From the NCBI GenBank assembly GCA_023419535.1, contig JAEZXX010000072.1, positions 55,011 through 79,010 on the forward strand: a stretch of 24,000 nt of DNA, given 5' to 3'. The DNA comes from Pseudomonadota bacterium (GTDB lineage: Bacteria > Pseudomonadota > Alphaproteobacteria > Rhizobiales > Rhizobiaceae). The position numbers were made by a program, and so were the translations under genes. Below the pieces are notes generated by a model. The model saw only the letters and a program-made list of their open reading frames with translations, did not search any database and had not been told where the DNA came from. This document shows positions 4,959 to 23,912 of the stretch, in pieces. Position 1 is the first letter of the stretch, and every line of letters begins with the position of its first letter.

Positions 4959-5238
4959 CGTTGAAGGTCTCCTGCCCTGCGGACGCCGCCGGCACGGGCG
5001 GTTCGCGGGCGTCTTTCGGCCTGGGCGGATCGGGACGGGGCGCGCGGGGCGCCCTCGCCGGTCAAAGGCCCGGTGCGGTGAGCGCGCGGTAGAAGAAGCG
5101 GCCGGGCAGGCGGCGCCGGTCGTCGAGCGGGGCGAAGCCCAGCGTCGTCGGCAGTCGGCAGCTGCGGGTGGCGGTGACCGTCATGGCGGCGTTTTTACCA
5201 GTTCCGGGCGGCGCCGACAACGCCGGTGCCTCGCCGGC

Positions 5239-6528
5239 TCAGGCGTAGAGGTCGCGCCGCGTCGGCGGCAGGCCGGAAGGGCCCTTGTCCCGCTTGGAGG
5301 CCAGCGTCTGGTTGACCATCACCGAGCCGCGTTCGAAGGCGAGCGCGCAGCCCGCCAGGTAGAGCAGCCAGACCCGCGCCTTCTCCTCGCCGATCTCGGC
5401 CGCGGCCGCGTCCATATGAGCGCGCAGCCGCTCGGCCCAGAGCCGGCAGGTCCGGCCGTAATGCTCGCGCCAGTTCTCCACGTCGTGCACCTCGAAGCGG
5501 TGCGCCTCCAGCTTCTGCAGCGAGTGGCCGACGAAGTCGAGCTCGCCGCCCGGGAAGATGTAGCGGGTGATCGCCCGGTACTCGTGCGAGCGCTTCGCGT
5601 GGAAGTCCTTCAGCGTCCTCTTCGCCGGCCGCGCGATGGCGTGGTGGAGATAGAGGCCGCGCGGGCGAAGCAGTTTCGAGACGGCCGAGAAATAGGCGTC
5701 GTGACGGGCGAAGCCCACATGCTCGAACATGCCGATCGAGGCGATCTTGTCGAACGTGCCCGTCAGCGCCTCGAAGGGCTTGAGCTCGATCGTGATCCGG
5801 CCGGCGAGACCGGCGTCCGCCACAAGCTGCGTGGCGAGGTCGAACTGGGCCTTCGAGAGCGTCACGCCGTGGCCTGTGACGCCGCGCGTCCTCGCGGCGT
5901 GGATCAGAAGGGCCCCCCAGCCGCAGCCGATGTCGAGGAAGCGCTCGCCGGGCGACAGGCGCAGCTTGCGGCAGATCATCTCCAGCTTGTCGCCTTGCGC
6001 GCGGTCGATGTCGTCGTGCCAGCCGTCGAAATAGGCGCAGGAATAGACCATCCGCTCGTCGAGGAAGAGCCGGTAGAAGTCGTTGGAGACGTCGTAGTGG
6101 AACTGGATGGCGTCCTTCGTCGAGCCCGAGCGGCCTTCGTCGGTGCCGATCGCCGCCGCGCCGCGCGTCCGCCCCCGGTGCAGTCGCCAGAGGGCGGGAA
6201 GGGCGCGCGCGATGCGCACCTTGTCGAGACGCTTCAGCCCGGCCTTGCGCCCGCCGTCCGGCCGGGCCGCGGCGATGTCGAAGATCGAACCGCCCTCGAT
6301 GTCCAGCCGCTTGCCCGCCCAGAGCTCGACGAGGGTCGCGATGGAGGGCGAGAAGGCGAGGCGGGAGAGGACGTGCGCATCGGCGACGACGATCGCCGGG
6401 CCGGCGACAGGACCGATGCGCTCGCCCGTCCACAGGCGGATCGCGAAGCCCGGCCGGAAGGCCTCGGCCGCGTGGGCGATGAGGTCGGCGGCCGTGCGCT
6501 CCGGGCCGCCCTCGACGTGTCTCGCCAT
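5239..6528 (-). CDS. cfa: Cyclopropane-fatty-acyl-phospholipid synthase family SAM-dependent methyltransferase
   Basis: Track ORF 5239-7047 runs on through sugE in another frame. I trimmed it to ATG 6526-6528 (MARHVEGG...), which has a GAGGAG SD about 6 nt upstream; 429 aa. CFA-synthase motifs present: IQFHYDVSNDFYRLFLDERMVYSCAYF, SAM-binding LDIGCGWG, IASIGMFEHVG, IFPGGELD. Confidence 0.9.
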   Translation of the reverse strand: MARHVEGGPERTAADLIAHAAEAFRPGFAIRLWTGERIGPVAGPAIVVADAHVLSRLAFSPSIATLVELWAGKRLDIEGGSIFDIAAARPDGGRKAGLKRLDKVRIARALPALWRLHRGRTRGAAAIGTDEGRSGSTKDAIQFHYDVSNDFYRLFLDERMVYSCAYFDGWHDDIDRAQGDKLEMICRKLRLSPGERFLDIGCGWGALLIHAARTRGVTGHGVTLSKAQFDLATQLVADAGLAGRITIELKPFEALTGTFDKIASIGMFEHVGFARHDAYFSAVSKLLRPRGLYLHHAIARPAKRTLKDFHAKRSHEYRAITRYIFPGGELDFVGHSLQKLEAHRFEVHDVENWREHYGRTCRLWAERLRAHMDAAAAEIGEEKARVWLLYLAGCALAFERGSVMVNQTLASKRDKGPSGLPPTRRDLYA

Positions 6529-6656
6529 CGCGGCGTTCTCCTCGCTGCCCCCGACCGCGAGACTTGCGGTTCGGGCGCCGGGAGTCCAGCCGCCATGCCC
6601 GGTCGGGACGAAGCATTCCGTCCCGGGGACCGCGCCCGCGTGGGGCGGACGGCGCC

Positions 6657-6977
6657 TCAGGCGGTGGAGGACAGCTTCATCAGCGCGATGCCCGAGACGA
6701 TGAGCCCGGCCGCCAGAAGCCGCATCGGGTTGGCGCTTTCGCCCAGGAACAGGATGCCGACGAGGAAGGCGCCCGCCGCGCCGATGCCCGTCCAGACCGC
6801 ATAGGCCGTGCCGAGCGGCAGCGTGCGCATGGCGATCGTCAGGAGATAGAAGCTGATGCCCATGGCGACGACCATGATGACGGTCGGCCCGGGCCGGGTG
6901 AAGCCCATCGAATATTTCATCGCCGTCGCCCAGACGATCTCGAAGAGACCCGCGACGAGAAGCATGATCCAGGCCAA
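6657..6977 (-). CDS. sugE: SMR-family guanidinium exporter (SugE/Gdx)
   Basis: 106 aa with a TTG start (6975-6977) and AAGGAGG 6 nt upstream. It aligns from residue 1 with E. coli SugE as I recall it ([17 protein letters not shown]... versus MSWIILVIAGLLEVVWA...). It also shares [14 protein letters not shown] and [10 protein letters not shown] and keeps the conserved membrane Glu (FEIVW). Confidence 0.92.
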
Positions 6978-6997
6978 GATCGGCCTCCTTTTCAGAA

Positions 6998-7048
6998 AGC
7001 CGGGCCGTCCCGGACATGGATGGGAAGCACCGCGGGTCGTCCCGCACG
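6998..7048 (-). promoter_or_regulatory. Guanidine-II (mini-ykkC) riboswitch in the sugE 5' UTR
   Basis: The minus strand reads GCGGG-ACGA-CCCGC (7032-7045), an 18-nt linker, then CCGGG-ACGG-CCCGG (7000-7013). These are two GC-clamped hairpins with ACGR tetraloops, which is the defining mini-ykkC architecture. The array lies directly upstream of the SD (AAGGAGG, 6984-6990) of an SMR guanidinium exporter, the canonical regulated gene. Confidence 0.8.
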
Positions 7049-7057
7049 CGTCGTCCT

Positions 7058-7086
7058 TATCTGGGTCGGGCGCAAAAACCGGTCAA
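7058..7086 (-). promoter_or_regulatory. Candidate sigma70-type promoter of the riboswitch-sugE transcript
   Basis: On the minus strand: TTGACC (7081-7086), 17 nt spacer, CAGATA (7058-7063). This puts the predicted transcription start a few nt upstream of riboswitch hairpin 1. Sequence match only. Confidence 0.35.
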
Positions 7087-7118
7087 GGCGTATGGCGTGC
7101 TGAAGGTCCCGAAGGGTC

Positions 7119-7604
7119 TCAGCCGCGTTCGGCCTGCCGCGGCACCGGAACGCCGGCGAGCGCGCACCAGTCGCGCCGCCGTCCCCCCTCATAGGGGACC
7201 ACATGCCCTTCCGCGAGGAGCCGCCGGCCGAGGTCGGGCTCGGTCTCGGTCGACAGATCGGCGAGGACGCGGCCGAAATACTTGTCGCCCTCGATGCGCG
7301 TGAGCCGCACCATGCCGTCGCCGATCAGCTCGATCAGGCGGGCGCGCGCCGCCTCCGCCGCGTCGATCTCGCTCTGGCACTGGCCGCGCCGCTCCGGCGC
7401 GTCGATGCCGCGGATGCGCACGGCGACGTGAACCGCCTGCATCGGCCAGACGAAGGCGGCGACCGTCACCGTGTCGCCGTCGCGCACCTCGACGACCTGA
7501 GCCTCCACCGGACCCGCGATGCGCCGCGGCGGAACCTGCGGCTCGGCAAGGGCGGGGAGCGCCAGAGCGAGGCCGAAGAGAAGGGCGGAAGCGGAACGGA
7601 GCAC
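7119..7604 (-). CDS. Secreted thermonuclease (staphylococcal-nuclease-like) family protein
   Basis: SNase motifs VVEVRDGDTVTV, VRIRGIDAPE and YFGRVLADL. The track starts it at ATG 7646, but those first 14 codons are AT-rich and GC3-poor and overlap a promoter-like element. I prefer GTG 7602-7604, which gives MLRSASALLFGLALALPALA-EP, a clean signal peptide. Start choice is uncertain. Confidence 0.8.
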   Translation of the reverse strand: MLRSASALLFGLALALPALAEPQVPPRRIAGPVEAQVVEVRDGDTVTVAAFVWPMQAVHVAVRIRGIDAPERRGQCQSEIDAAEAARARLIELIGDGMVRLTRIEGDKYFGRVLADLSTETEPDLGRRLLAEGHVVPYEGGRRRDWCALAGVPVPRQAERG

Positions 7605-7636
7605 GACCGACTCGGATCGAGATAAGACAGAAGTCC

Positions 7637-7665
7637 TATCTACCATGCGCGCTCGCGTACTGCAA
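7637..7665 (-). promoter_or_regulatory. Candidate sigma70-type promoter for the thermonuclease gene
   Basis: On the minus strand: TTGCAG (7660-7665), 17 nt spacer, TAGATA (7637-7642), in a locally AT-rich patch. The -10 element overlaps a 9-bp-arm palindrome (7620-7641). Confidence 0.35.
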
Positions 7666-7768
7666 ATGTTCCGTTCCGCCCGAATGCAACGTGGCGGTCG
7701 AAGACCGCAACTCGAAGTCCATGCTGTGCGGGACAGTTTCGTGAACGAAATCCTAACGCCGCCTGCGC

Positions 7769-7963
7769 TCAGAAGTCGGAGGCGATGCCCTTCTTCTCCC
7801 AGTCACCGAAGCGCGTGGGCTCGGGACCCGCGGGTCCGTTCAGCTCGGGCGGCAGCGGTGCCTCCTCCTGCGCCCGCCGGCGCGCCTCGGCCTCGGCGAG
7901 GGCGCGCAGCGCGGCGGGGGAGAGGGTCTTGCGCTCGGCAGCGCCGGAAGCGTCGTCGTCCAT
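7769..7963 (-). CDS. DUF1674 domain protein (SDHAF4-like)
   Basis: The C-terminus PTRFGDWEKKGIASDF is the DUF1674 signature. I start it at ATG 7961-7963 (MDDDASG..., 64 aa), which has AAGGAAAGG upstream. The codons above that in the track ORF (up to 8035) lose GC3 bias. An alternative ATG lies at 8005. Confidence 0.75.
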   Translation of the reverse strand: MDDDASGAAERKTLSPAALRALAEAEARRRAQEEAPLPPELNGPAGPEPTRFGDWEKKGIASDF

Positions 7964-8089
7964 CGGGGGAGCCTTTCCTTCGACGGGCGGGCCGGCCTCG
8001 AACATTGAAGCGGAGGGGCACGCGCACCAGATCAACTGCCGTCAGATCGCCCTTCGAAGGGCCGTTCGCAACCCGGAGACCTGCCGACG

Positions 8090-9061
8090 ATGAACATGAT
8101 CAAGACGGGCATGCTGATCGCCGTCATGACCGCCCTCTTCATGGGCGTCGGCGCCCTGATCGGCGGCAGCCAGGGCATGATGATCGCCTTCGCGATCGCC
8201 GTCGTCATGAACCTCTTCGCCTACTGGAACTCCGACAAGATGGTGCTGCGCATGCACCACGCCCACGAGGTCGACGAGCGCAGCGCGCCCGACTACTACC
8301 GCATGGTGCAGGGGCTGGCCGCCCAGGCGGGCCTGCCGATGCCCAAGGTCTACATCATCGAGAACGACCAGCCGAACGCCTTCGCGACCGGCCGCAACCC
8401 GCAGAACGCGGCCGTTGCGGCGACGACGGGCCTGCTCCAGCGCCTGACCCCCGAGGAGGTCGCGGGCGTCATGGCGCACGAGCTGGCGCACGTGCAGAAC
8501 CGCGACACGCTGATCATGACCATCACCGCGACGCTCGCCGGCGCGATCTCCATGCTCGGCAATTTCGCCTTCTTCTTCGGCGGCTCGGGGGGCGACAACC
8601 GCAACCCGCTCGGCATTATCGGCGTGCTCCTGGCCATGATCGTCGCGCCGCTGGCCGCGATGCTCGTGCAGATGGCGATCTCGCGCACCCGCGAATATTC
8701 CGCCGACCGCCGCGGCGCCGAGATCTGCGGCAACCCGATCTGGCTCGCCTCGGCGCTGCAGAAGATCGCCGTCGCGGCCGGGCGCACCGTCAATGTCGAC
8801 GCCGAGCGCAATCCGGCGACGGCGCACATGTTCATCATCAACCCTTTGAACGGCCAGCGCGCCGACGCCCTGTTCTCGACCCACCCCGACACCGGCAACC
8901 GCATCGCGGCGCTCCAGCAGATGGCGGCGGAGATGGGCGCCGGGCGGGCCGCGCCGGCCCGTGCCGAGAGCGCCTTCGGTGCCGGGCTCCGCCACACCGG
9001 CGGCCAGCGCGGCCCGTGGACCGGTGGCGGGTCCTCCTCCAGCCAGGGCCCCTGGGGTTGA
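8090..9061 (+). CDS. htpX: Zinc metalloprotease HtpX (peptidase M48)
   Basis: 323 aa starting at ATG 8090 with a GGAGAC SD. N-terminal TM helices, NAFATGRNP, the HEXXH motif [13 protein letters not shown], and [10 protein letters not shown]. Confidence 0.95.
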
Positions 9062-10443
9062 GCGCGCCGAAGGGCGGCGCGCCGGGAGCGAAGACCAGGG
9101 GACCGAAGGAGAGATTCGAGCCCGCGCGCCCGGGCCTCGCCAGCCGGCAGGTGGCAACGCGCCTGCTGTCGGCCGTCGTCGACGCGAAGACCTCGCTCGA
9201 CGGACTGACCGACCCGAGCGGCGGACATCCGGGCTACCGGGCGCTGGAGCCGCGCGATCAGGCGCTGGTGCGGGCGATCCTGGCGACCGCCCTGCGGTTT
9301 CGCGGCACGATCGAGGGGCTGGTCTCGGGCGCGATCGAGCGCCCGCTGCCCGAGGGCGCGGTGTCGCTGCGCCATCTTCTCCATGTCGGCGCCGCGCAGA
9401 TCCTCTTTCTCGACGTGCCCGATTCGGCGGCGGTGGACCTCGCGGTCGCGGCCGCCAGCGAGGACCCGCGCAACAGGCGCTTCGCCGGGCTCGTCAACGC
9501 CGTCCTGCGTCGGATCGCGCGCGAGGCGGTGGAGCGCCCGCACCTGTCCCGCGACCCGATGGCGGACATGGCGCCGTGGCTCCGCGAGCGTCTGACACGG
9601 GTGTACGGGGCGGAGCGGACGGGCGCGATCGCGGCGGCGCACCTGACGCCCGCGCCCATCGACCTGACCGTGACGGGCGATCCGGAGGGCTGGGCGGAGC
9701 GGCTCGGCGGCCGGGCGCTCCCGGGCGGGACCGTGCGCCTCGACCGGCTGGACGGGCCGGTGACGACCCTTCCCGGTTTCGAGGATGGCCATTGGTGGGT
9801 GCAGGACGCGGCGGCGGCCATTCCCGCCCGGCTCCTGCCCGGCATCGCGGGGCGGCGCGTCGCCGACCTGTGCGCCGCGCCCGGCGGCAAGACCGCGCAG
9901 CTCGCGGCGGCGGGCGCGCGCGTGACCGCCTTCGACATCTCGGCCAGCCGCCTGAAGCGGCTTCAGGCGAACCTGACGCGGCTGAGGCTCGACGCCGAGA
10001 CGCGGCTCGGCGACATCCGCGAGATCGAGCCCGAACCCTTCGACGCCGTCCTCCTCGACGCGCCCTGCTCGTCGACCGGCACGATCCGCCGGCACCCGGA
10101 CGTCGGCTGGACCAAGAGCGCCGAGGAGGTGGAGAAGCTCGCGCGCGTCCAGGCCGGGCTGCTCGACCGCGCGGCCGACTTCGTGGCGCCCGGCGGCCGG
10201 CTCGTCTTCTCCAACTGCTCCCTCGACCCGGCGGAGGGCGAGGCGGTCATCGAGGCCTTCCTCGCCGCGCATCCGGCCTTCTCGCGCGAGCCGGCGACCC
10301 CGGCCGAACTGCCGGGGCTGGCACGGGCCATCGATGCGCGCGGCGACGTCCGCACGACGCCGGATATGGATTTCGGGGCGTCGCAGGGGGCGATCCCGGG
10401 GCTCGACGGCTTTTTCGCCGCGCGGCTTCGGCGCGACGCGTGA
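9058..10443 (+). CDS. rsmB: 16S rRNA (cytosine-C5)-methyltransferase RsmB/Sun
   Basis: This is the C-terminal ~460 codons of track ORF 7519-10443; the upstream part of that ORF is antisense or off-frame junk. Motifs: SAM site [34 protein letters not shown], and an N-terminal NusB-like region. There is no in-frame ATG near the true N-terminus. The best candidate start is TTG 9058-9060, overlapping the htpX stop (TTGA); GTG 9151 is the alternative. Confidence 0.88.
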
Positions 10444-10450
10444 ACGCGCG

Positions 10451-11056
10451 CTAGATCGCACGCTCCTCCAGGATCCTCGACGTCTTCGCGACGTTGAAGG
10501 GCTGGATGACGAGCTTCGTCCAGCGCCGCCGGACCATGACGGCGGTCTCTTCGCCGAGCGGCGTGAGGCGCGGTTCGGCCCGCCACCCTTCGTTCAAAGG
10601 GAAGTCGTTCTCACGCGCGTCGTAGGCCAGCTGGGCCGCGGCGGCACTGGCCCAGACCTTCGCGGGATCGACGGGATAGGGGTAGCTGCCCGTGGCGTAG
10701 TAGCCGAAGAACCGCATCTTCAACCGGATGGTCCGGTTTCGGATGTTCTCGTGGGAGAAGAAGGCGTGCGGGACCTGCTGCGTGCACTCTATGCACGGGC
10801 TCCACCGGCCGAAGAGCATGACGGTCGCGTTGTTCGGGATGGCCTTGAAGTTCTCCGTGGCGGCGCTCAGGGCCTGAAGGAGCAGATGTTCGACGTGAAC
10901 GCCGTGCTTGACGAAGGACCGGTCGATCTGAAGGTATTTGTTCGAGTTCGGATCGCTGATGGCGACGACGCCGAGCATGTTGGTCGAGAAGGTGTGGTCG
11001 GCGATCTGCAGCTCCCATTCGCAGCGCTCCTGCGCGGCGTTCGCAAGCCGTCCCAT
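10451..11056 (-). CDS. Stand-alone AID/APOBEC-like zinc-dependent (cytidine) deaminase-fold protein
   Basis: 201-aa ORF starting at ATG 11054-11056 with GGAGG 6 nt upstream. It has H54-V-E56 (10889-10897) and P87-C-I-E-C91 (10784-10798), i.e. HxE-x30-PCxxC. The local context HVEHLLL...FGRWSPCIECTQQV...IRLKMRFFGYY resembles vertebrate AID. GC is lower than in flanking genes. The function call is pattern-based, not a database hit. Confidence 0.7.
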   Translation of the reverse strand: MGRLANAAQERCEWELQIADHTFSTNMLGVVAISDPNSNKYLQIDRSFVKHGVHVEHLLLQALSAATENFKAIPNNATVMLFGRWSPCIECTQQVPHAFFSHENIRNRTIRLKMRFFGYYATGSYPYPVDPAKVWASAAAAQLAYDARENDFPLNEGWRAEPRLTPLGEETAVMVRRRWTKLVIQPFNVAKTSRILEERAI

Positions 11057-11293
11057 CGAAACCTCCGCCCGCCCAACCTTCCGCTAGGGCAGGTTTGCAC
11101 AGCCATGGGTGGTGCGCAAGCGTGCCGCCTGGCGCTCGAAAGACCAAGGCCACGTCGCGGATCGACCGGTTCGCACGCTTTCATCGCCCCGTCTTAGGGA
11201 AGCGTTTACCTCGATCCGGGAAACTTCGGACGGGGGTCGCACGGCGGGAGCGGCCCTCGCGGATGCGAACCCAAGAGGCGGGGACAGAAGGTC

Positions 11294-12979
11294 ATGGCGG
11301 CCGAATTCATCGACGACCCGCGTCTGGCCGCGCTGACGGCGCGCGAAGCGGCGCGGCGGCTGCGGCGCGGCCTGCGGCTTCCGGCCCTCTCCTTCCTCTA
11401 CCGGCGCTCGCGCGAGAACGACCGGCTGCTCGCGCTTCCGCGCGATCTGGAGCGCGGCACGGCCGCGATCGCCGAGGCCATCTATTCCGGCGTGTTCGAT
11501 CTCGCCGGCCACCGCATCGTCGCGACGGAGCGCTCGCCGTTCCTGGAGGCCGAGGCCCCGGCCGCCTGGCGCGAGGCGCTCGTCTCCTTCGAATGGCTGC
11601 GCCACCTCAGCGAGGTCGAGGACGCGCTCGCCAGCGAGAACGCCCGCGCGCTGCTGCGCGATTTCCTGGCGCCCGCTCCGCGACGCCGCCTGGCGCCCTC
11701 GCAGCGCCCGGACGTCGCCGCGACGCGTGTGATCTCGCTCCTCTCGCATGCGCCGCTTCTGCTTCAGAACGCCGATTCGCCCTTCCGGCGCCGCTTTCTC
11801 GACGCGCTCGCCGCCGAGACGCGGGCGCTCAAGCGCGCCGCGCCCGAGACGGCCGAGGGCCTGCCGCGGCTGAAGGTGCGCATCGCGCTCGCCTTCGCGG
11901 CGCTCTGCCTGCCGGGCCGCTGCGACGCCCGGTCCGCCTCGGCGCATTTGAGCGACGAGCTCGACCGCCAGATCTTCCCCGACGGCGGCCACGCCTCACG
12001 CAATCCGCAGGCGATCGCGGTGCTGCTCAAGCTGCTCCTGCCGTTGCGCCAGCTCTATTCGGCGCGCGGCATGGCCGTTCCGCGCCCGCTCTTTGGCGCG
12101 ATCGACCGCATGCTGCCGGCGCTGCGCTTCTTCCTGCACGGCGACGGCGCGACGGCCCTCTTCAACGGCGCGGGCCTCGTGCCGGTGCCGCTCGTCGCGG
12201 CGCTGGTGCGTCAGGACGAGACGCTCGGCGAGCCCGTCGGCCACATGCGCCAGTCCGGCTATCAGCGCCTGGTGCGCGGCGGCACGACGATCGTCGCCGA
12301 CACCGGCCTTGCCCCGCCGACCGCGCTCTCGGGCGACAGCCACGCAGGAACGCTCGCCTTCGAATTCTCCTCCGGGCGCCAGCGCTTCGTCGTCAATTGC
12401 GGCGCGCCGGCGGCCGGCCACGAGGCGCACCGGCGCCTCGCCAGAGCCACCGCCGCCCATTCGACGCTGACGCTCGGCGACCGCTCCTCGGCGCGCTTCG
12501 CGCGCTCCGAGCGGCTCGACCGCTTCCTCGGCTCGCCGGTCGTCGCGGGGCCCTCGCGCGTGCCCTCCGCCTGCGAGGAGGTGGCCGAGGGCCAGCTCCT
12601 GACGGCGGCGCACGACGGCTACAGGCTGGCCTTCGGCCTCGTCCACGAGCGCGAGATCCTGCTCTGGCGCGACGGACTGCGCATCGAGGGCGCCGACCGG
12701 CTGCACCCGGCGGCGGGACGGGCGCGGATGCTCGGGCCCGCTCCGGAGGCCACGCTCCGCTTCCATCTCCACCCCGACGTGGTGGCCGGCGAGGCCGGGC
12801 GGGGCATTCGCCTGGCGGCCGGCGAGGAGGTCTGGTGGTTCTTCTGCGACCAGCAAGGGACGCTCGAGGATTCCGTCTTCTTCGCCGGTGCCAAGGGCCC
12901 GCGCCGCACGCGCCAGATCGTGGTGACGATGGAGCCGGGCGCGGCTCAGGCGAACTGGCGTTTCGAGCGCCAGCGTTGA
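11294..12979 (+). CDS. Heparinase II/III family protein (conserved alphaproteobacterial protein of unknown role)
   Basis: 561 aa starting at ATG 11294. Recognisable segments: FEWLRHL, IFPDGGHASRNP, and SHAGTLAFEFSSGRQRFVVNCG (heparinase II/III-like C-terminal domain pattern). No signal peptide. From memory, homologues sit next to rsmB in many Rhizobiales. Confidence 0.8.
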   Translation: MAAEFIDDPRLAALTAREAARRLRRGLRLPALSFLYRRSRENDRLLALPRDLERGTAAIAEAIYSGVFDLAGHRIVATERSPFLEAEAPAAWREALVSFEWLRHLSEVEDALASENARALLRDFLAPAPRRRLAPSQRPDVAATRVISLLSHAPLLLQNADSPFRRRFLDALAAETRALKRAAPETAEGLPRLKVRIALAFAALCLPGRCDARSASAHLSDELDRQIFPDGGHASRNPQAIAVLLKLLLPLRQLYSARGMAVPRPLFGAIDRMLPALRFFLHGDGATALFNGAGLVPVPLVAALVRQDETLGEPVGHMRQSGYQRLVRGGTTIVADTGLAPPTALSGDSHAGTLAFEFSSGRQRFVVNCGAPAAGHEAHRRLARATAAHSTLTLGDRSSARFARSERLDRFLGSPVVAGPSRVPSACEEVAEGQLLTAAHDGYRLAFGLVHEREILLWRDGLRIEGADRLHPAAGRARMLGPAPEATLRFHLHPDVVAGEAGRGIRLAAGEEVWWFFCDQQGTLEDSVFFAGAKGPRRTRQIVVTMEPGAAQANWRFERQR

Positions 12980-16076: not shown

Positions 16077-19000
16077 CTAGAAGGGCTTGGTCAGGGTCAG
16101 CGTCCCGGAATGATCGCGCTGCCCGCCGCCCAAGCCGAGGGCCGGACGGTAGTCGAGGGCGAGGGTCCAGCCGTCGACGAAGGCGGCGTCGAAGCCGATC
16201 CCGAACTCCAGCCGGTCCTGCCCCTCGACATCCGTGCGCACGCCGTAGGCCAGGGTGCCGACGTCGGCGTAGCCGATCGAGGCGCGGTCGGACCGGGCGA
16301 AGTCGTGGGCGTACTCGATGCGGGCCCGCGGCGTCAGGACGCCCCAGTCGAAGGCGACTTCGCTCTCCAGCCGCAGGCCGACGATCCCGGCGAGGCTGGA
16401 GACGTCTTGGCGTCCGTAGGTCAGCGTGAAGGGGCTGGCGCCCGCCTCGGTGAAGGCGTCGAGCCTGGCGTGAGAGCCTTCGAGGCCGAGATAGGGCGCG
16501 AAGAGATGCGCCTGCCCGCGGTGCTCCCAGGTCGCGGTGAGCGAGCCGAACACCTGGTCGCCGGACCGCTCGCCGCGTGCGATCTCGCCGGTCGCCGTCA
16601 CGTGGCGATGGCTGTCGAACTCCAGCCGGCTGTAGCCGACGAGGCCGTCGAGGAAGAGATTCGCGCCGGGCGCGAAGCTGCCGTAGAGGACGCCGCTGTA
16701 GGCCTCCGCCCGGCTCGTCGTCCCGTTCTCGCCGATGTCGGCCCGCTCGCGGCCGTAGCCGATGCCGACGCCGCCCACGAACTGCGGCGTGAAGCGGTAG
16801 TCGACGCCGGCGCTGAGTCCGACGAGGGTGCGGTCCAGATCGATCGAGACCTCGTCGACGTCGCGCGACCCGAAATTGACGAACCCGCCGGCCCAGAAGG
16901 CCGCGTTCGACCGCGGTCCTTCGACGCCCGAGCCCGCCGCCGGCTCGCGGGCAAAGGTCGGGGCCTTGCCGCCGGAGGCCGGGTCGAGCGTCGCGAAGCG
17001 GTCGTCGAGGGCGGTCTGCCCGCGCTCCTCGAAGAGGGCGATCGGGTCGTTCGCCGAGGATTCGCTCGGCAGGCCGATCGAGATGTTCGCCGAACCCCGC
17101 CGGCGCTCGTCCTCGTCATGCGTGCGCTCCAGCCGGTCCCGGAAGTTCCGGATCTGCGCGCTGGCGATGCGACGGGTCGAATCCGCCTGGGCCCCCAGAA
17201 GTCCGACGACCTCCGGGTCGAGCGCGGGATCGGGACGCGCCTCGACGAGCACGGTCAATGTCGCGACGTTCGAGGGGCCGAACGCGTTGGACAGGGTGAA
17301 GGTGATGCTGGTCCGTCCCGCGCCCGCCGGATCGGCGGCGAAGACGAGCGAGGTCCCCGCCCCGCCGCGATCGAGCGCGGCGGTGCCGATGCGCGGGTCG
17401 GGCTGTGAGACGAGCGCGGCGCCCGTGAAGGGGCCTCCGGTCGCGCCTGCGGTCAGGTCGACCGTCAGGGCGGTCCCGGCGAGGACCGTGACGGTGGCGT
17501 CCGCGGCGGTCGGCAGTTCGCCCTCGACCCGCAGCGTATAGGTCGCCGTCCCCGTGAAGCCGTTGGCGTCGCTCGCCCGCACGACGATCTCGAAGCTGCC
17601 GCCGGCCGTCGGGGTGCCGGACAGGACGCCGTCGGCGCCCAGCGCCAGACCCGGCGGCAGGGTGCCGCCGGCCAGGGCGAAGCCGTAGGGCGCAGCGCCG
17701 CCCGAGGCCGTGATCGCCTGTCCGTAGGGCGTGCCGACGGTGGCGGCGGGCAGGGCGCCGGGCGCGAGCGCGATGGCCGGCGCGCCGATCCGCACCGTGT
17801 AGTCCGCCGAACCGGCGAAGCCGTTGGTGTCCGTCGCGGTGACGGTGAAGGCGAAGCTGCCGCCCTGCGTCGGGGTGCCCGACAGGGTCCCGTCGGGGGC
17901 GAGCGCCAGACCGGGTGGCAGGGTGCCGGTGGCGGTGAAGGCATAGGGGCCGACGCCCCCGGAGGCCGTGAGGGTCTGGAGATAGGCGACGCTGCCCGTG
18001 CCGTCCGGCAGGGTGGCGGGCGCGAGTGCGATGGCCGGCGGGTCGATCCGCACCGTGTAGTCCGCCGAACCGGCGAAGCCGTTGGCGTCCGTCGCGGTGA
18101 CGGTGAAGGCGAAGCTGCCACCCTGCGTCGGGGTGCCCGACAGGGTCCCGTCGGCGGCGAGCGCCAGCCCGGGCGGCAGGGTGCCAGCCGCGGAGAAGAC
18201 ATAGGGGCCGACGCCGCCGGAGGCCGTGAGGGTCTGGAGATAGGCGACGCTGCCCGTGCCGTCCGGCAGGGTGGCCGGTGCGATCGCGATGGCCGGCGGG
18301 TCGATCCGCACCGTGTAGTCCGCCGAACCGGCGAAGCCGTTGGTGTCCGTCGCGGTGACGGTGAAGGCGAAGCTGCCGCCCTGCGTCGGCGTGCCCGACA
18401 GGGTCCCGTCGGTGGCGAGGGTCAGCCCGGGGGGCAGAGTGCCGGTGGCGGAGAAGACATAAGGACCGACGCCGCCGGAGGCCGTGAGGGTCTGGGCATA
18501 GGCGACGCTGCCGGTGCCGTCCGGCAGGGTGGCCGGTGCGAGCGCGATGGCTGGCGGGTCGATCCGCACCGTGTAGTCCGCCGAACCGGCGAAGCCGTTG
18601 GCGTCCGTCGCGGTGACGGTGAAGGCGAAGCTGCCGCCCTGCGTCGGCGTGCCCGACAGGGTCCCGTCGGTGGCGAGGGTCAGCCCGGGCGGCAGGGTGC
18701 CGGCCGCGGAGAAGACATAGGGGCCGACGCCGCCGGAGGCCGTGAGGGTCTGGGCATAGGCGACGCTGCCCGTGCCGTCCGGCAGGGTGGTGGGCGCGAT
18801 CGCGATGGCGGGTGCGCCGAAGACGAGGCTGTAGGCCTGCTCGCCGGTGTTGCCATTGGAGTCGGTCGCCGTCGCCGTGAAGCCGAAGCTGCCGGTCTGG
18901 GTGGTCGTCCCGGAGAGCGTCCCGTCGGACGCGAGCGTGATGCCGGCCGGCAGCGCGCCCGCGGTCACGGCGAAGCCGTAGGGCGCAGCGCCCCCCGATG

Positions 19001-22000
19001 CGGTCAGCGCCTGGGCGTAGGGCAGGCCTGCCGTGCCCGCGGGCAACGTGGCCGGGGCGATGGCGATCGCGGGCGCCTCGATGACGAGGCTGTAGGGCCG
19101 GCTGCCGGCGTTGCCGTTCGCATCGGTGGCCGTCGCGGTGAAGGAGAACGAGCCGCTCTGCGTCGTCGTGCCGGCGAGCGTCCCTTCGGTCGACAGGGTG
19201 ATGCCGGCCGGCAGCGCTCCGGCCGTCACGGCGAAGCCGTAGGGGCCGGTGCCTCCCGAGGCGGTGAGGGTCTGCGCGTAGGGCACCCGCGTGATGCCCT
19301 GCGCGAGCGCGGCGGGCGCGATCTGGATGTCGGGGACGACGACGGTGAGGCTGTAGGCGAGCGACCCGGCGAAGGCGCCGGTTCCGGTGCTGGAATCGGT
19401 CGCCGTCACGGTGAAGTTGAACGTCCCGCCGGCCGTCGGCGTGCCCGAGAGGACGCCGTTCGCCGCGAGCGAGAGGCCGGTGGGCAGCGCACCCCCGGTG
19501 ACGGCGAAGCCGTAGGGCGCGGTGCCGCCCGAGGCGGTGAAGGTCTGGCTGTAGGCGACGTTGCGCGTCGCGTCGGGGACCGCGCCGGGCGCCACCGCGA
19601 TGGTGGGCGCGCTGATGTCGAGGGTGTAGGCGCGGGTTCCGGTGAAGCCGTTGCCGTCGGTGGCCCGCACGGTGAAGGAGAACGTGCCCCCGGCCGTCGG
19701 CGTGCCCGACAGGGTTCCGTCGGTCGCCAGGGCCAGTCCTGCGGGCAGGGTGCCGGTGGCGAGGGTGAAGGCGTAGGAGCCCGTTCCGCCGCTGGCGGTC
19801 AGGATCTGGCTGTAGGCCGCCGCGACGGTCCCCGCGGGCAGACTTTCCGGTGCGATCACGATCGACGGCGCGCCGACCGAGAGGGTGTAGGCCACGCTGC
19901 CGGCATAGCGGCCGCCGGGATTGGGGCCGCCGGTCGAGCTGTCGGTCGCCGTCACGGTGAAGGGGAAGCTGCCCTGGACGGTCGGCGTGCCCGACAGGAC
20001 GCCAGTGGGCGACAGCGTGACGCCGGTCGGGAGCGCGCCGGCGGTGACGGCGTAGCTGTAGGGCGCGGTGCCGCCGCTCGCCGTCAGGGTCTGCGAATAG
20101 GGCTGGCCGCCCGTGGCGGGGAGCAGAGCGCTCGGCGCGATCGCGATCGCTGGCGCCAGCACCGTCCCGGTGTACTGCTGGGTACCGGAGAACGGCGCGT
20201 TCGTGCCCGTCGAGCTGTCCGTCGCCGCGATCGTGAAATCGTAGTCGCCGCCCTGCGTGGGCGTGCCGGAGAGCGTCCCGTTCGGTGCCAGCGCGAGGCC
20301 CGTCGGCAGGGCGCCGGTGCTCACGGAGAAGGTGTAGGGCGCCGTCCCCCCGGTCGCCCCGAGGTTGGCGGTGTAGGCGGCGCCCACCTGCGGCTGCGGG
20401 ATCGACGCCGGCGTCACGTCGATGGTGGGGGGCCGGATGTTGCCGCTATAGGCCACCGTGAGCGTGTAGGGGCCGCCGCTTTCGGGGGGCGAACTGTCGG
20501 TCGCCGTGACGGAGAAGGTGTAGCCGCCGGCCTGAGTCGGCGTACCGGAGAGGCGACCGTCGGCGGCGAGCGTCAACCCGGCCGGCAGACTGCCGCCGGT
20601 GACGGCGTAGCTATAGGGCGCCGTTCCGCCGCTCGTGGAGAGATTCACGCTGTAGGCCAAGCCCACCGTCCCGCCGGGAAGCGGGCTCGGGGGAGACGCC
20701 GTCAGGGTCGGTGTTGCGATGGAGAGGGTGAAGGCCTGCGACTGCGTGACCGGCGGGCTGCCGAGGCCCGTATCCGTGACCGTGACGGTGAAGGGGAAAC
20801 TGCCGCTGGCGGCCGGCGTGCCGGTGATCCGGCCGCCGGTCGAGAGCGTCAGGCCCGCGGGCAGGGCGCCGCTCGTGATCGCGTAGCTGTAGGAACCCGA
20901 ACCGCCGCTGGTCGTGAAGGTGAAGTCGTACGCCGCGCCCCGCTGGCCGGCGGGCGGCGTGTTGGTCGTCAGCGTCGGATCGGCGATCGTGATCGAGACC
21001 GTCGCCGGCGCGGAGGTGGCGACGCCGTTGCTGACGGTGAAGGTGAAGCTGTCGGCCCCGCGCGCGTTCGTGGTCGGCGCGTAGGTGAGGTTCGGGGCGG
21101 TGCCGGAGAGGGTTCCGCGCGCCGGGCCCGTCGCGACGTTGTAGGTCAGCGTCCGCGCCGGCGTGTTCGGGTCGGTGCCCGTCAGGGTGATCGCGGTCGC
21201 CGTGTTGAACGGCACGGCGACGCTCTGGGCGTTCGCGGTCGGCGCCTGGACGACGGTCAGCGTCGCCGCGTTCGTCGTGACGGTGTCCTCTGTGTTGGTG
21301 AAGACCGCCCGGTAGCGGTTTCCGTTGTCGGAGGCGACCGTCGGGGGCGTCGTGTAGCTGGTCGAAGTCGCGCCCGGGATGTTCGTGAAGCTTGCGCCGC
21401 CGTTCGTCGAGACCTGCCATTGCACGCTCGGCGCGGGAGAGCCCGACGCCGCGGCGTTGAAGGTCGCCGTCGCGCCGACGGCGACGGTCTGGTCCGCCGG
21501 CTGCGTCATGACGGCCGGCGCGGTCAGGACGACATAGGAGAAGCCGCCCACCAGCGTCGCCGTCCCGCCGCCCGTCGTCACCGAAACGTCGGCCGGACCC
21601 GCCGGACGGGCGGGCGTGACCGCCGTGATCTCAGTGGCGCTGTTGACGACGAAGCTCTGCGCGCCCGCGCCGCCGAACGTGACGGCGGTCGCATTGGTGA
21701 AGTTCGTGCCGGTGATCGTCACGCTCGTGCCGCCGAGGGTCGTCCCCGAGTTCGGCGTGACGCTCGTGAGCGTCGGGGCCGCGATGTAGGTGTATTGGTC
21801 GGCCGGCGGGTTGGCCGCGGTGGTCACGCTCCCGGTCGTGACGCGCACGCCGTAGGTCCCCGCGGTCCGGGCCGGCAGCGTCGCGTTGAGCTGCGTCGCG
21901 CTGACGAAGCTGACGCCGGTGGCGGCCACGCCGTCGACGGTGACCGTCGCGGACGGCGTGAAGTTGGTGCCGGTGATGGTGACCGCGCGCGTCTGGTTCG

Positions 22001-22952
22001 CCGGGCCGGAGGTGGCGCTGAGGGCGGTTACGGTCGGGGCGGCGTAGGTGAAGGTCGCGGCGCCGGAGGCGGCGAGGTTCCTCGTGTTGTCGGTGACACT
22101 CACCGTTACGGCGCCGTTGCCGGCCGGCGTCGTCGCTCTCAGCGTCGTCGCGCTGGCGAAGGTCGCGGGCACCGTGGTGCCGCCGAAGGTCGCGCTGTAG
22201 GCGCTGGTGTTGACGAAGTTCGTGCCGGTGATCGTCACCGGCGTACCGCCGCCGCTCGACCCGCCCGTCGGTGCGATCGAGTTGATGGTCGGGGCGGGCG
22301 GGGTGGCGGGCGTACAGGTGACGGCGAAGTCGATGGTGCCGTTCGTCGGACTGCCGTCCGCAAACCCGAGCAGACCGATGGATGTCTCGGCTCCCGTGAC
22401 AGAATATTGCCGTGTTGCCGTGTCATTGGCCGTGAAGCGGACGGTTCCGACCTGCGCCGTCGCCGTCGCGTTGCTTCCGTTTCGGAACGCACCTCCTATC
22501 GCTCCGATCGCCGAGCTGGTGCTGAAGTTGCTGACCGTCATCGTCAGGTTGATCTGGTCGCCTGCCGCGAAGGGATAGAGAGTGCCGCCGTCCAGATAGG
22601 CTGCGGTGCCGGCATCGGGGTCGGTGGTGCCGGCGACCGTCCGGATCGCGTGGATGGCGCGGTTGGTCACCGTGTTCTCGGAACGGGCGGTGGACTGAGC
22701 GGTATTGAGGTCCGAGTTGACGAAAACCGCGCGGAAGTTGAGGCCGCCATTGTTGACCGCAGTGCAGCCCGCCGACTGGGCCGAGGCGGTCGTCGGGGTC
22801 ATCATCGCAAAGGCCGCGGCTGCAACGCCGGTTGCCAGCCGAAGTCCTAGCGCCGCCTTCGTGACCGGAGCCGCAGATCCGCTGGTTCTGGACAGGCTGC
22901 CACGGCAGATAGACAGCGCGCGCCCCATAGCGCGGACGAAGGAGATCGACAT
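16077..22952 (-). CDS. Giant type Va autotransporter adhesin with IPT/TIG, I-set-like Ig and 13 He_PIG-type Ig repeats
   Basis: The open frame runs to 23018 (TTG); I start it at ATG 22950-22952 (MSISF...). Residue numbers follow the 2313-aa track ORF. Signal peptide ends ...TPTTASA|QSAG at residue 80. Cys-bracketed N-terminal domain: nt 22299-22778. Three IPT/TIG domains (GGTPVTITGTNF-type): 21525-22292. I-set-like Ig (PSVQWQVS...DNGNRYRAVFTN): 21249-21524. Cadherin/Big-like domain: 20982-21248. Thirteen He_PIG repeats (LPxGxxGxxYxxxLxASGGxxPYxFxxxxGxLPxGLxLxxxGxLSGTPT): 17523-20981. Ig-like spacer: 17238-17522. Autotransporter linker plus beta-barrel (AFWAGGFVNFGSRD...LTLTKPF, terminal Phe): 16080-17237. 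Confidence 0.9.
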   Translation of the reverse strand: MSISFVRAMGRALSICRGSLSRTSGSAAPVTKAALGLRLATGVAAAAFAMMTPTTASAQSAGCTAVNNGGLNFRAVFVNSDLNTAQSTARSENTVTNRAIHAIRTVAGTTDPDAGTAAYLDGGTLYPFAAGDQINLTMTVSNFSTSSAIGAIGGAFRNGSNATATAQVGTVRFTANDTATRQYSVTGAETSIGLLGFADGSPTNGTIDFAVTCTPATPPAPTINSIAPTGGSSGGGTPVTITGTNFVNTSAYSATFGGTTVPATFASATTLRATTPAGNGAVTVSVTDNTRNLAASGAATFTYAAPTVTALSATSGPANQTRAVTITGTNFTPSATVTVDGVAATGVSFVSATQLNATLPARTAGTYGVRVTTGSVTTAANPPADQYTYIAAPTLTSVTPNSGTTLGGTSVTITGTNFTNATAVTFGGAGAQSFVVNSATEITAVTPARPAGPADVSVTTGGGTATLVGGFSYVVLTAPAVMTQPADQTVAVGATATFNAAASGSPAPSVQWQVSTNGGASFTNIPGATSTSYTTPPTVASDNGNRYRAVFTNTEDTVTTNAATLTVVQAPTANAQSVAVPFNTATAITLTGTDPNTPARTLTYNVATGPARGTLSGTAPNLTYAPTTNARGADSFTFTVSNGVATSAPATVSITIADPTLTTNTPPAGQRGAAYDFTFTTSGGSGSYSYAITSGALPAGLTLSTGGRITGTPAASGSFPFTVTVTDTGLGSPPVTQSQAFTLSIATPTLTASPPSPLPGGTVGLAYSVNLSTSGGTAPYSYAVTGGSLPAGLTLAADGRLSGTPTQAGGYTFSVTATDSSPPESGGPYTLTVAYSGNIRPPTIDVTPASIPQPQVGAAYTANLGATGGTAPYTFSVSTGALPTGLALAPNGTLSGTPTQGGDYDFTIAATDSSTGTNAPFSGTQQYTGTVLAPAIAIAPSALLPATGGQPYSQTLTASGGTAPYSYAVTAGALPTGVTLSPTGVLSGTPTVQGSFPFTVTATDSSTGGPNPGGRYAGSVAYTLSVGAPSIVIAPESLPAGTVAAAYSQILTASGGTGSYAFTLATGTLPAGLALATDGTLSGTPTAGGTFSFTVRATDGNGFTGTRAYTLDISAPTIAVAPGAVPDATRNVAYSQTFTASGGTAPYGFAVTGGALPTGLSLAANGVLSGTPTAGGTFNFTVTATDSSTGTGAFAGSLAYSLTVVVPDIQIAPAALAQGITRVPYAQTLTASGGTGPYGFAVTAGALPAGITLSTEGTLAGTTTQSGSFSFTATATDANGNAGSRPYSLVIEAPAIAIAPATLPAGTAGLPYAQALTASGGAAPYGFAVTAGALPAGITLASDGTLSGTTTQTGSFGFTATATDSNGNTGEQAYSLVFGAPAIAIAPTTLPDGTGSVAYAQTLTASGGVGPYVFSAAGTLPPGLTLATDGTLSGTPTQGGSFAFTVTATDANGFAGSADYTVRIDPPAIALAPATLPDGTGSVAYAQTLTASGGVGPYVFSATGTLPPGLTLATDGTLSGTPTQGGSFAFTVTATDTNGFAGSADYTVRIDPPAIAIAPATLPDGTGSVAYLQTLTASGGVGPYVFSAAGTLPPGLALAADGTLSGTPTQGGSFAFTVTATDANGFAGSADYTVRIDPPAIALAPATLPDGTGSVAYLQTLTASGGVGPYAFTATGTLPPGLALAPDGTLSGTPTQGGSFAFTVTATDTNGFAGSADYTVRIGAPAIALAPGALPAATVGTPYGQAITASGGAAPYGFALAGGTLPPGLALGADGVLSGTPTAGGSFEIVVRASDANGFTGTATYTLRVEGELPTAADATVTVLAGTALTVDLTAGATGGPFTGAALVSQPDPRIGTAALDRGGAGTSLVFAADPAGAGRTSITFTLSNAFGPSNVATLTVLVEARPDPALDPEVVGLLGAQADSTRRIASAQIRNFRDRLERTHDEDERRRGSANISIGLPSESSANDPIALFEERGQTALDDRFATLDPASGGKAPTFAREPAAGSGVEGPRSNAAFWAGGFVNFGSRDVDEVSIDLDRTLVGLSAGVDYRFTPQFVGGVGIGYGRERADIGENGTTSRAEAYSGVLYGSFAPGANLFLDGLVGYSRLEFDSHRHVTATGEIARGERSGDQVFGSLTATWEHRGQAHLFAPYLGLEGSHARLDAFTEAGASPFTLTYGRQDVSSLAGIVGLRLESEVAFDWGVLTPRARIEYAHDFARSDRASIGYADVGTLAYGVRTDVEGQDRLEFGIGFDAAFVDGWTLALDYRPALGLGGGQRDHSGTLTLTKPF
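17523..20981 (-). repeat. In-frame array of 13 He_PIG-type (putative Ig / dystroglycan-cadherin-like) domain repeats, ~80-90 aa each
   Basis: The pattern ...SGGxxPYxF...LPxGLxLxxDGxLSGTPTxxGxFxFTVTATD... recurs 13 times in the translated adhesin. Identity between repeats is variable outside the four-copy core. Confidence 0.85.
17787..18818 (-). repeat. Four near-identical tandem 258-bp (86-codon) copies inside the He_PIG array
   Basis: The marker string gatccgcaccgtgtagtccgccgaaccggcgaagccgtt recurs at 17787, 18045, 18303 and 18561, an exact 258-nt period. I hand-aligned copy 18045-18302 against 18561-18818 and found about 16 mismatches and no indels. Most mismatches are at the copy junction. 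Confidence 0.9.
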
Positions 22953-23270
22953 CGGCAGGCCCCCGACCCTTCTCCAGTTCCCCAACTGGTTGAAGCGGTC
23001 ATCCGTACCGTCACGCAATGCACGCGCGTGTCAAGGATACCGTTACGGAATCGTCGGCAGCACGCCGCTTTAAATTACGATGTGATGCGAAGACGCAACC
23101 GACCGCGCGAAATAACTAGAAGAAGTGACGGCTCGTAATTCCGTCGCGGCACTTGATCTGAAACGTAACGGTTGTACCATCGCGACGCGCGTCCGCTCCT
23201 TGCGATCTGTCGCAGCGCATGGGGCGCGGCGAGGCAAGGTTGTGCCTGGGCGCTGGGCGAGGGGAGACGC

Positions 23271-23861: not shown

Positions 23862-23912
23862 GACGGCCGAGCGGTGCGCCGCCCGTCGGGCCGCGTACCG
23901 CCCCGCCTCGCC

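Follow-up and report, generated by a model that had tools for sequence, protein, structure and literature searches.

Closest described systems and the gene in question

AID/APOBEC deaminases play a central part in antibody diversification, antiviral restriction and cancer mutagenesis in vertebrates. In bacteria, AID/APOBEC-like domains have been described only as modules of polymorphic toxins (Iyer et al., 2011, PMC3239186; Krishnan et al., 2018, PMC5889660). The domains of Wolbachia phage B3gp45 and Pseudomonas brassicacearum PSEBR_m1207, for example, are C-terminal modules of RHS/SpvB toxins, and they keep two helices past strand 5 of the fold (PMC3239186). Here we describe a bacterial gene for an AID/APOBEC-like zinc deaminase that stands by itself. 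It lies on the minus strand at positions 10451..11056, stop codon included, of a 24,000-nucleotide stretch of alphaproteobacterial DNA (contig JAEZXX010000072.1; hereafter the window), and we are highly confident that it encodes a stand-alone AID/APOBEC-like accessory deaminase. Our preferred reading of its function, to which we give a probability of about 0.47, is that the product is a cytoplasmic cytosine deaminase that edits polynucleotides, probably single-stranded DNA (ssDNA), and is directed against mobile elements.

DddA, which we take to belong to the SCP1.201 clade, and SsdA, which we assume falls in the same C-terminal-hairpin division of the superfamily, each carry a fused delivery domain and have an immunity protein as partner. 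Both are bacterial DNA cytosine deaminases that act in conflict, as proposed for the present gene (eLife 2021, PMC7901873, for SsdA), and the SCP1.201 clade is part of the C-terminal-hairpin division (PMC3239186). Anti-phage defence by cytosine deamination, again as proposed here, is known for AvcD/DcdV and the deoxycytidine triphosphate (dCTP) deaminases, but these act on free nucleotides; AvcD is a deoxycytidylate deaminase with an adjacent RNA antitoxin and is controlled without a protein antitoxin, as the present enzyme would be (PMC10511110; bioRxiv 10.1101/2021.04.26.441389). A 2026 review of bacterial defence gives as deaminase defences only dCTP deaminase and a CRISPR-associated adenosine deaminase, with no APOBEC, and a general review of immunity gives APOBEC for vertebrates only. 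Our own literature search, whose coverage left out most subscription journals, found neither a stand-alone bacterial AID/APOBEC-like family nor a polynucleotide-deaminase anti-phage gene. The superfamily and the clade are known; new, within this coverage, are the stand-alone architecture, the different C-terminus and the biological setting.

An intact gene with the catalytic signature

The gene was delineated from the listing of open reading frames (ORFs), the G+C content of third codon positions (GC3), Pfam matches, homologues and an AlphaFold2 model. Its product of 201 amino acids, read from an ATG start, contains VHVEHLLLQAL, VMLFGRWSPCIECTQQVPHAFF and IRLKMRFFGYY. A sequence-only reading of the window had reported an ORF of this length, preceded by a good Shine-Dalgarno sequence and carrying HVE at 10889-10897 and PCIEC at 10784-10798. 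Conversion of the coordinates reproduced both positions exactly (P87-C88-I89-E90-C91 at 10784-10798) and gave a spacing of 30 residues between E56 and P87, and a GGAGG Shine-Dalgarno sequence was read directly at 11062..11066 (minus strand), 5 bases before the ATG. The start codon is confirmed by the family-wide N-terminus, which begins MG[KR]xT.

Conservation was measured in a 42-sequence alignment of the deaminase family (A1). The segment H54-V55-E56 (10889..10897, minus strand), which supplies the zinc-ligand His and the catalytic Glu at the start of helix 2, aligns with H257/E259 of APOBEC3G, and its H54 and E56 are invariant in all 42 sequences. The WSPCxxC box W85-S86-P87-C88-I89-E90-C91 (10784..10804, minus strand), which spans the end of strand 3 and the start of helix 3 and provides both Cys zinc ligands, aligns with its WSPCxxC counterpart in APOBEC3F/3G. 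H54, E56, S86, P87, C88, C91 and A141 are invariant (42 of 42), and M27, P74, W85 (88%), K113 (90%), F116 (93%), Y120 (90%), W135 and Y145 are conserved at about 90%; Y119 reaches 74%. At the counterpart of the APOBEC S-W-S sequence, the first Ser is replaced by Arg, Lys, Asn or other residues, while the Trp and the second Ser correspond to W85 and the invariant S86. The segment K113-M-R-F-F-G-Y119-Y120 (10697..10720, minus strand) was placed by conservation and the model at strand 4 and the start of the long loop that joins strand 4 to helix 4. With its conserved aromatic residues it is the probable counterpart of APOBEC loop 7, the equivalence of the loop-7 Tyr being suggested by the alignment pattern and not by superposition, and Y119/Y120 may serve in base stacking.

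Several other explanations were dismissed. That the ORF was merely mis-called, as can happen in GC-rich DNA, is argued against by the codon-position G+C and by the homologues: the ORF has values of 0.59/0.44/0.90 at the three codon positions, its GC3 of 0.90 being like that of host genes in a window of about 72% G+C, and the overlapping alternative ORFs lack the pattern of a genuine gene. Overall G+C falls locally to 0.645 at the deaminase gene, and the source of the fall is codon positions 1 and 2. An assembly artefact was ruled out by an independent assembly from another sequencing run, which is base-for-base identical across the deaminase region. A chance motif was ruled out by the APOBEC_N match described below (E=5e-7, above the gathering score) together with some 50 homologues in which H, E, S-P-C and C are invariant.

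Sequence profiles point to AID/APOBEC-type families

All eight Pfam matches to the deaminase were to AID/APOBEC-type families, together covering about residues 41-117. APOBEC_N (PF08210) scored 30.3 bits against a gathering score of 25 (E=5e-7) and NAD1 27.1 bits against a cut-off of 27; SNAD4, APOBEC2 and NAD2 fell just under their cut-offs, and APOBEC1, APOBEC4 and APOBEC4_like were also among the lower matches. When the family was scanned member by member, APOBEC_N matched 40 of the 42 sequences and NAD1 and SNAD4 39 each, whereas the Pfam families of bacterial toxin deaminases matched none at E<=0.01. A search of all PDB sequences with the family profile returned APOBEC/AID proteins as the only deaminases at E<0.05, with APOBEC3G (A3G) best at 1.1e-6; the other matches were two weaker, unrelated chains. 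No Pfam or PDB sequence match extended over the C-terminal third of the protein. The NAD1 and SNAD4 profiles, the next-best Pfam matches after APOBEC_N, belong with NAD2 to metazoan families (Krishnan et al., 2018, PMC5889660); these differ from the present family in being eukaryotic and, for the SNADs, in carrying signal peptides, and their matches cover only the core from helix 2 to helix 3.

These searches bear on the possibility that the gene encodes a housekeeping deaminase such as TadA, cytidine deaminase (CDA), deoxycytidine monophosphate (dCMP) deaminase, guanine deaminase (GuaD) or RibD, or is an inactive relic. The HxE...PCxxC motif is common to all these enzymes. The housekeeping model dCMP_cyt_deam_1, however, matched only 3 of 42 family members, and weakly, the deaminase had no NCBIfam match, and the locus is empty in close relatives (see below). 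Housekeeping families were ruled out by the profiles, by the ranking of fold matches and by the absence of the gene from the relatives' locus, while decay is disfavoured by the invariant catalytic residues, the host-like GC3 and the intact frame, and we regard this whole alternative as scarcely credible. The proposal of the sequence-only reading that the protein is AID/APOBEC-like and not a housekeeping enzyme is therefore upheld by profile searches that place it only in AID/APOBEC-type families. Within that assemblage, the family is a divergent and distinct clade, not a canonical APOBEC.

Predicted structure

An AlphaFold model built with alignment A1 reached a predicted local distance difference test score (pLDDT) of 89.4 and a predicted template modelling score (pTM) of 0.86; a single-sequence model reached a pLDDT of 37 and was not used. 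The predicted order of elements is a helix at residues 3-18, strands at 29-34 and 41-45, a helix at 55-66 just past HVE, a strand at 78-85 that ends in the Trp, a helix at 89-100 that carries PCxxC, a strand at 111-118, a 19-residue loop at 119-137 that starts with Y119 and Y120, and a helix at 138-149. Three strands follow (154-164, 170-180 and 182-186), with no helix past residue 149 and a pLDDT of 91-94 up to residue ~190. Up to strand 5, the modelled topology is that of the helix-4 division of deaminases, in which helix 4 lies between strands 4 and 5 as in AID/APOBEC and TadA; this topology was defined by Iyer et al. (2011, PMC3239186). A Foldseek search of the PDB with the model ranked APOBEC1, A3A, AID and A3C/F/H/G/B at positions 1-33 (E 3e-5 to 7e-3), with TadA from rank 34 and no CDA, dCMP, guanine or RibD deaminase in the top 50, as expected from the AID/APOBEC fold that had been proposed from sequence.

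Vertebrate AID/APOBEC proteins (APOBEC3A/C/F/G/H, AID and APOBEC1; PF08210) are thus the best matches of the family by both sequence profile and fold. They share with it the HxE-x30-PCxxC zinc site, the W-S-P-C box ending strand 3, the helix-4 topology alpha1-beta1-beta2-alpha2-beta3-alpha3-beta4-alpha4-beta5 in a single domain of ~200 amino acids, and the long strand-4/helix-4 loop that opens with conserved aromatics. They differ in that the family is bacterial and only ~15-22% identical over the aligned core, has its own MG[KR]xT N-terminus, and usually carries Arg, Lys or Asn at the first Ser of S-W-S. The largest difference lies in the C-terminal third, residues ~151-201 (10454..10606, minus strand), for which the secondary structure assigned to the model by DSSP and the family consensus give three predicted beta strands and a K-T-S motif (191-193) in place of APOBEC helices 5 and 6. 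The sequence-only view that the ORF is only the catalytic fold, of the size of APOBEC3A, consequently holds for the length of ~200 amino acids but not for the fold as a whole, in which residues ~150-201 are predicted beta strands instead of helices 5/6 and the Pfam match spans only 41-106. The two helices past strand 5 of the RHS/SpvB toxin domains, with which we compared the family by published description only, are likewise missing in the model; those domains further differ from the family in not being free-standing and in coming with a trafficking domain and an immunity gene.

A one-gene insertion between rsmB and a heparinase-like gene

The window comes from an uncultured bacterium related to Aureimonas (Aurantimonadaceae); the LeuC of this host shares 88% identity with the A. 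mangrovi and A. populi proteins. The gene order is htpX, rsmB, the deaminase gene on the opposite strand, a heparinase II/III-like gene and a carbonic anhydrase gene. On the left, rsmB (9058..10443, plus strand; 16S rRNA 5-methylcytosine methyltransferase; Pfam Methyltr_RsmB-F and NusB) is kept in relatives and is convergent with the deaminase gene, the two stop codons lying 7 bp apart. On the right, the heparinase II/III-like gene (11294..12979, plus strand; Pfam Hepar_II_III_C) is divergent from it.

Contigs of three close relatives were found through the 90%-identity cluster of the heparinase-like protein. In all three (L010, L011 and L012), rsmB is followed directly by the heparinase-like gene across a 115-bp spacer, with no deaminase gene. 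In collinear order, blastn matched window positions 5228-10443 to L010 702-5885 and 11189-13159 to L010 5900-7866, and the same holds for L012 and L011, at 83-88% identity. Together with an alignment of the junction, these matches define a lineage-specific insertion of ~735-745 bp, from 10444 to ~11180-11188, which contains the deaminase ORF, 7 bp on its 3' side and ~125-130 bp on its 5' side, and is too short to hold a second gene. Its borders showed neither a target-site duplication nor terminal inverted repeats; the only exact repeats there were 9-mers at chance level (~2 expected in 1.1 kb). We also found no promoter or terminator for the deaminase gene and no tRNA in the 24-kb window.

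Because the site is empty in the relatives, the deaminase gene counts as accessory and not as part of a conserved core. Conservation as a core gene at this locus had been named beforehand as a finding that would count against the proposal, and the gene is absent from the same rsmB/heparinase-like junction in all three relatives' contigs. The claim that there is no delivery domain, immunity gene or other partner also stood, as the insertion holds the ORF alone and no neighbour is conserved across homologues.

The synteny with the relatives stops right after the carbonic anhydrase gene (window ~13860 onward; L010 8703-10615, L012 8133-10107). At this break, a DUF3800 gene stands in one relative and a DUF429 gene in the other, and in each of them a pdxK-like kinase gene and a gene for a 1631-residue NAD-glutamate dehydrogenase come next, whereas the window carries genes for an ABC-F ATPase and an autotransporter; it is a second variable spot in the region.

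A very rare proteobacterial family

The family was uncovered only by an exhaustive HMMER search of 1.84 billion cluster representatives, which gave 55 proteins at E<=1e-3. Two of these (P0041 and P0054) were artefacts of repeat proteins, and nearly all others are 180-230 residues long. A word-indexed search of 5.8 billion proteins recovered only the deaminase itself, and with the family profile only four proteins. The ~50 clusters that make up the family among these 1.84 billion representatives mark it as very rare, and each 90%-identity cluster that we examined had one to three members. It forms a proteobacterial clade that was, to judge from our literature search, previously undescribed. Named carriers are Paraburkholderia sp. 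J8-2, Ectopseudomonas khazarica, Pseudomonas fluorescens and a Cellvibrio metagenome-assembled genome, and in all of them the protein is annotated "hypothetical protein".

The family is conserved at both termini, with MG[KRQN]xT at the N-terminus and K-T-S at the C-terminus. Longer entries hold the "MG.." start internally, which indicates that their upstream extensions are gene-calling artefacts. None of the ~50 homologues is fused to a trafficking or delivery domain, and the deaminase itself has no signal-like N-terminus. The family thereby differs from the polymorphic-toxin deaminases (DddA/SCP1.201, SsdA, MafB19, YwqJ, Pput_2613, BURPS668_1122, XOO_2897 and OTT_1508), having no fused trafficking domain, no immunity gene and no match to a toxin profile. 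Two metagenomic members have unusual architectures: P0037 (485 residues) has a coiled-coil-like insert of ~270 residues between strand 1 and the HxE helix and a Ser-rich tail, and P0014 (209 residues) has a collagen-like GLPGLPG tail.

Homologue neighbourhoods

No neighbour is conserved across 10 independent homologue contexts, and the downstream genes differ in every one of them. In E. khazarica (L003/L004, WP_404585519; also in an IMG/VR viral genome, L017), a P2-like prophage carries the homologue 37 bp past its gpD gene, where a ~7-kb cargo region starts. The same region encodes an AbiZ-like protein (DUF6161) and a KAP NTPase that PADLOC matches to its candidate PDC-S20. This cargo looks like an uncharted prophage defence hotspot. 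In P. fluorescens (L013), a PDC-S06 gene (929 bits) ends 131 bp upstream of the homologue, and an operon of a cyclic-oligonucleotide-based antiphage signalling system (CBASS), with a cyclase and Cap15, is 4 kb away. Two more contexts have toxin-antitoxin or mobile-element neighbours: in L009 the homologue is next to HicAB, with satellite or phage remnants, and in L022 it is next to a pair of PIN and ribbon-helix-helix (RHH) genes. In the Cellvibrio-type loci it sits in a small island adjoining ccmH, and three further loci are solitary insertions among metabolic genes, as in the window. PADLOC gave only marginal matches for the family-less neighbours in five further contexts. The stretches around homologues have a G+C content of 0.41-0.57, which we take to be lower than the averages of the host genomes.

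Some neighbours deserve mention in their own right. The E. khazarica cargo (L003 10947-16321), which lies between gpD and cII/ogr-like regulators, also contains ORFs of 202, 208, 163 and 265 residues without a family match. In Cellvibrio-type loci (L002 2217-7804, and L020), the gene before the homologue, on the same strand, encodes a 502-residue protein with an N-terminal OmpR-type winged helix, which could be a lineage-specific regulator of the deaminase; further upstream are two family-less proteins and, in L002, also a 558-residue WGR-domain protein.

Certain neighbourhoods raise the alternative that the family members are orphan cargo toxins of a type VI secretion system (T6SS), loaded non-covalently on a PAAR/VgrG spike and injected into competitors, like DddA or SsdA without a fused delivery domain. 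In L015/L016, the homologue lies in a small island, 305 bp from a divergent gene for a 141-residue PAAR protein, and in L013 a vgrG-rhs-Imm43-PAAR cluster is found further upstream, ~3.5 kb from the homologue. The AID/APOBEC-like domains known so far in bacteria, moreover, form part of RHS/SpvB toxins (Iyer et al., 2011, PMC3239186). Against such cargo stand the insertion in the window, which leaves no room for an immunity gene, and the lack of conserved downstream genes among homologues. The downstream genes of two homologue loci, compared as candidates for a shared immunity gene, proved unrelated. No adaptor or chaperone (DUF4123, DUF1795 or DUF2169) was seen, no T6SS gene lies within the window, none of the ~50 homologues is fused to a delivery domain, and in L013 the PDC-S06 gene stands between the homologue and the T6SS genes. 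We judge a T6SS toxin to be unlikely.

Proposed function

The family comprises intact catalytic sites in a deaminase fold, stand-alone and accessory, with homologues in a prophage and in a defence island; its behaviour is accessory, mobile and fast-diverging, and its closest kinship is to polynucleotide editors and not to enzymes of nucleotide metabolism. Among the roles suggested by the sequence-only reading (a single-gene antiviral editor, a conditional mutator, or an RNA or nucleotide editor), the homologue contexts favour the antiviral one. On this model, the gene would have arrived in the Aureimonas-like genome alone, as a cassette that brought along a ribosome-binding site and an upstream region of its own, and its product would be an active, cytoplasmic, zinc-dependent cytosine deaminase. 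The enzyme may deaminate cytosines in the exposed single-stranded nucleic acid of invaders, such as intermediates of phage replication or packaging, ssDNA phages and conjugating DNA. Breaks or lethal mutations would then arise from the uracils through host uracil-DNA glycosylase and apurinic/apyrimidinic (AP) endonuclease, in a manner resembling APOBEC3 restriction. The cell may protect itself through a substrate that is single-stranded only, modest expression and its own uracil repair rather than through an immunity protein; autoinhibition by the N-terminal MG[KR]xT or by the C-terminal beta-hairpin/KTS motif is a further speculation. A fitness cost to the host would suit the rarity and patchiness of the family. 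Escherichia coli survives expressed AID/APOBEC as a mutator, so that an enzyme that is mutagenic to its host, as had been argued from sequence, is not for that reason untenable.

Several observations weigh against the antiviral editing model. The APOBEC sequence similarity is confined to residues ~41-106, the Foldseek TM-scores (template modelling scores) are only 0.30-0.39 over ~100-150 columns, and the C-terminal third is a predicted beta-hairpin where APOBECs have helices 5 and 6. Clear defence neighbourhoods were found in only two of ~10 contexts, the window and several others being plain housekeeping surroundings; PDC-S06 and PDC-S20 are candidate and not validated defence systems; no PADLOC model matches the deaminase itself; and the two loci with PAAR or VgrG genes nearby fit a toxin. 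Scans of contig collections with the family pattern gave only one genome, one viral and two metagenome loci, and tblastn found nothing in 50,697 phage genomes or 72,556 plasmids, which confirms the rarity of the family and limits the statistics of its contexts. Finally, the flanks show no excess of C-to-T changes in the host lineage (172 vs 155 over 7.8 kb against two relatives, an unpolarised and weak count).

This last count also bears on the idea that the enzyme is a conditional self-mutator that raises the mutation rate of its own host under stress. A raised mutation rate is an expected side effect of any inhibitor-free cytoplasmic ssDNA deaminase. The flanking DNA, however, carries no trace of it within the limits of that count, and both the scattered occurrence of the family as singletons and its contexts in a prophage and a defence island suggest a role in conflict and not in host physiology; we consider self-mutation very unlikely.

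A defence enzyme might instead act on the nucleotide pool, deaminating free deoxycytidine (dC), dCMP or dCTP and starving phage replication, like AvcD/DcdV or the dCTP deaminases. The defence and prophage contexts would fit such an enzyme equally well, and this is the sole action shown so far for anti-phage cytosine deaminases in the literature that we found. Profiles and fold, in contrast, point towards polynucleotide editors, APOBEC first and TadA second, rather than towards CDA, dCMP or dCTP deaminases. AvcD carries an extra N-terminal domain, and no such kinase-like domain is seen in the present family; nor does the locus give the signal of an RNA antitoxin, with no adjacent repeat or structured RNA that could act as one. 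The 161 nt upstream of the deaminase gene fold like shuffled sequence (z = -0.01), a measure that an unstructured small RNA would escape, had no Rfam match, and TRF found no tandem repeats at 10 loci. On balance a nucleotide-pool enzyme also seems unlikely to us.

The substrate could also be RNA, with C deamination in tRNA, rRNA or mRNA causing growth arrest by abortive infection or serving regulatory editing. APOBEC1 and A3A edit RNA, the next-best structural matches are tRNA deaminases (TadA), and growth arrest by RNA damage would require no DNA repair partner. Nothing specific favours this role, however; no RNA-binding domain is present, and the gene is missing from close relatives and hence is no housekeeping editor. 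We hold an RNA editor or toxin to be decidedly unlikely.

If the antiviral editing model is right, the consequences reach beyond this locus. It is possible, though in our view doubtful, that the family is the free-living bacterial counterpart of eukaryotic AID/APOBEC, and perhaps a relative of its ancestor, acting in prophages and defence islands as a single-gene restriction factor that hypermutates invader ssDNA without an immunity protein. APOBEC-type mutagenic immunity would then join cGAS-STING, viperin, gasdermin and TIR/NLR as a mechanism shared by bacteria and animals, and the origin of AID/APOBEC would trace to defence genes instead of, or besides, secreted polymorphic toxins. A stand-alone cytoplasmic clade in prophages and defence islands would offer a directly testable model for APOBEC-type immunity in bacteria, and it raises the question of how cells tolerate an uninhibited polynucleotide deaminase. 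With 190-200 residues, a divergent substrate-loop region and ~50 natural variants, these enzymes are also an attractive source of compact cytosine base editors with new sequence-context preferences.

Other features of the window

Elsewhere in the window, a Guanidine-II (mini-ykkC) riboswitch was found at 7000-7048 on the minus strand (38.5 bits, gathering score 32). Directly downstream of it is a 106-residue ORF of the SugE/small-multidrug-resistance type (6657-6977, minus strand), where relatives annotate PF00893, and the two form the usual arrangement of a guanidine exporter. The autotransporter encoded at 16077-23018 (minus strand) is an adhesin of 2313 residues in which 13 He_PIG Ig-like repeats and TIG domains accompany a C-terminal autotransporter beta-barrel, and its region has a strong positive GC skew on the plus strand. 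At 22200-23900, the G+C content drops to a trough of 0.63-0.67 that may be a fragment of horizontally acquired DNA; it includes a 229-residue ORF (23172-23861, plus strand) with a phage tail collar domain and a 123-residue ORF without a family match.

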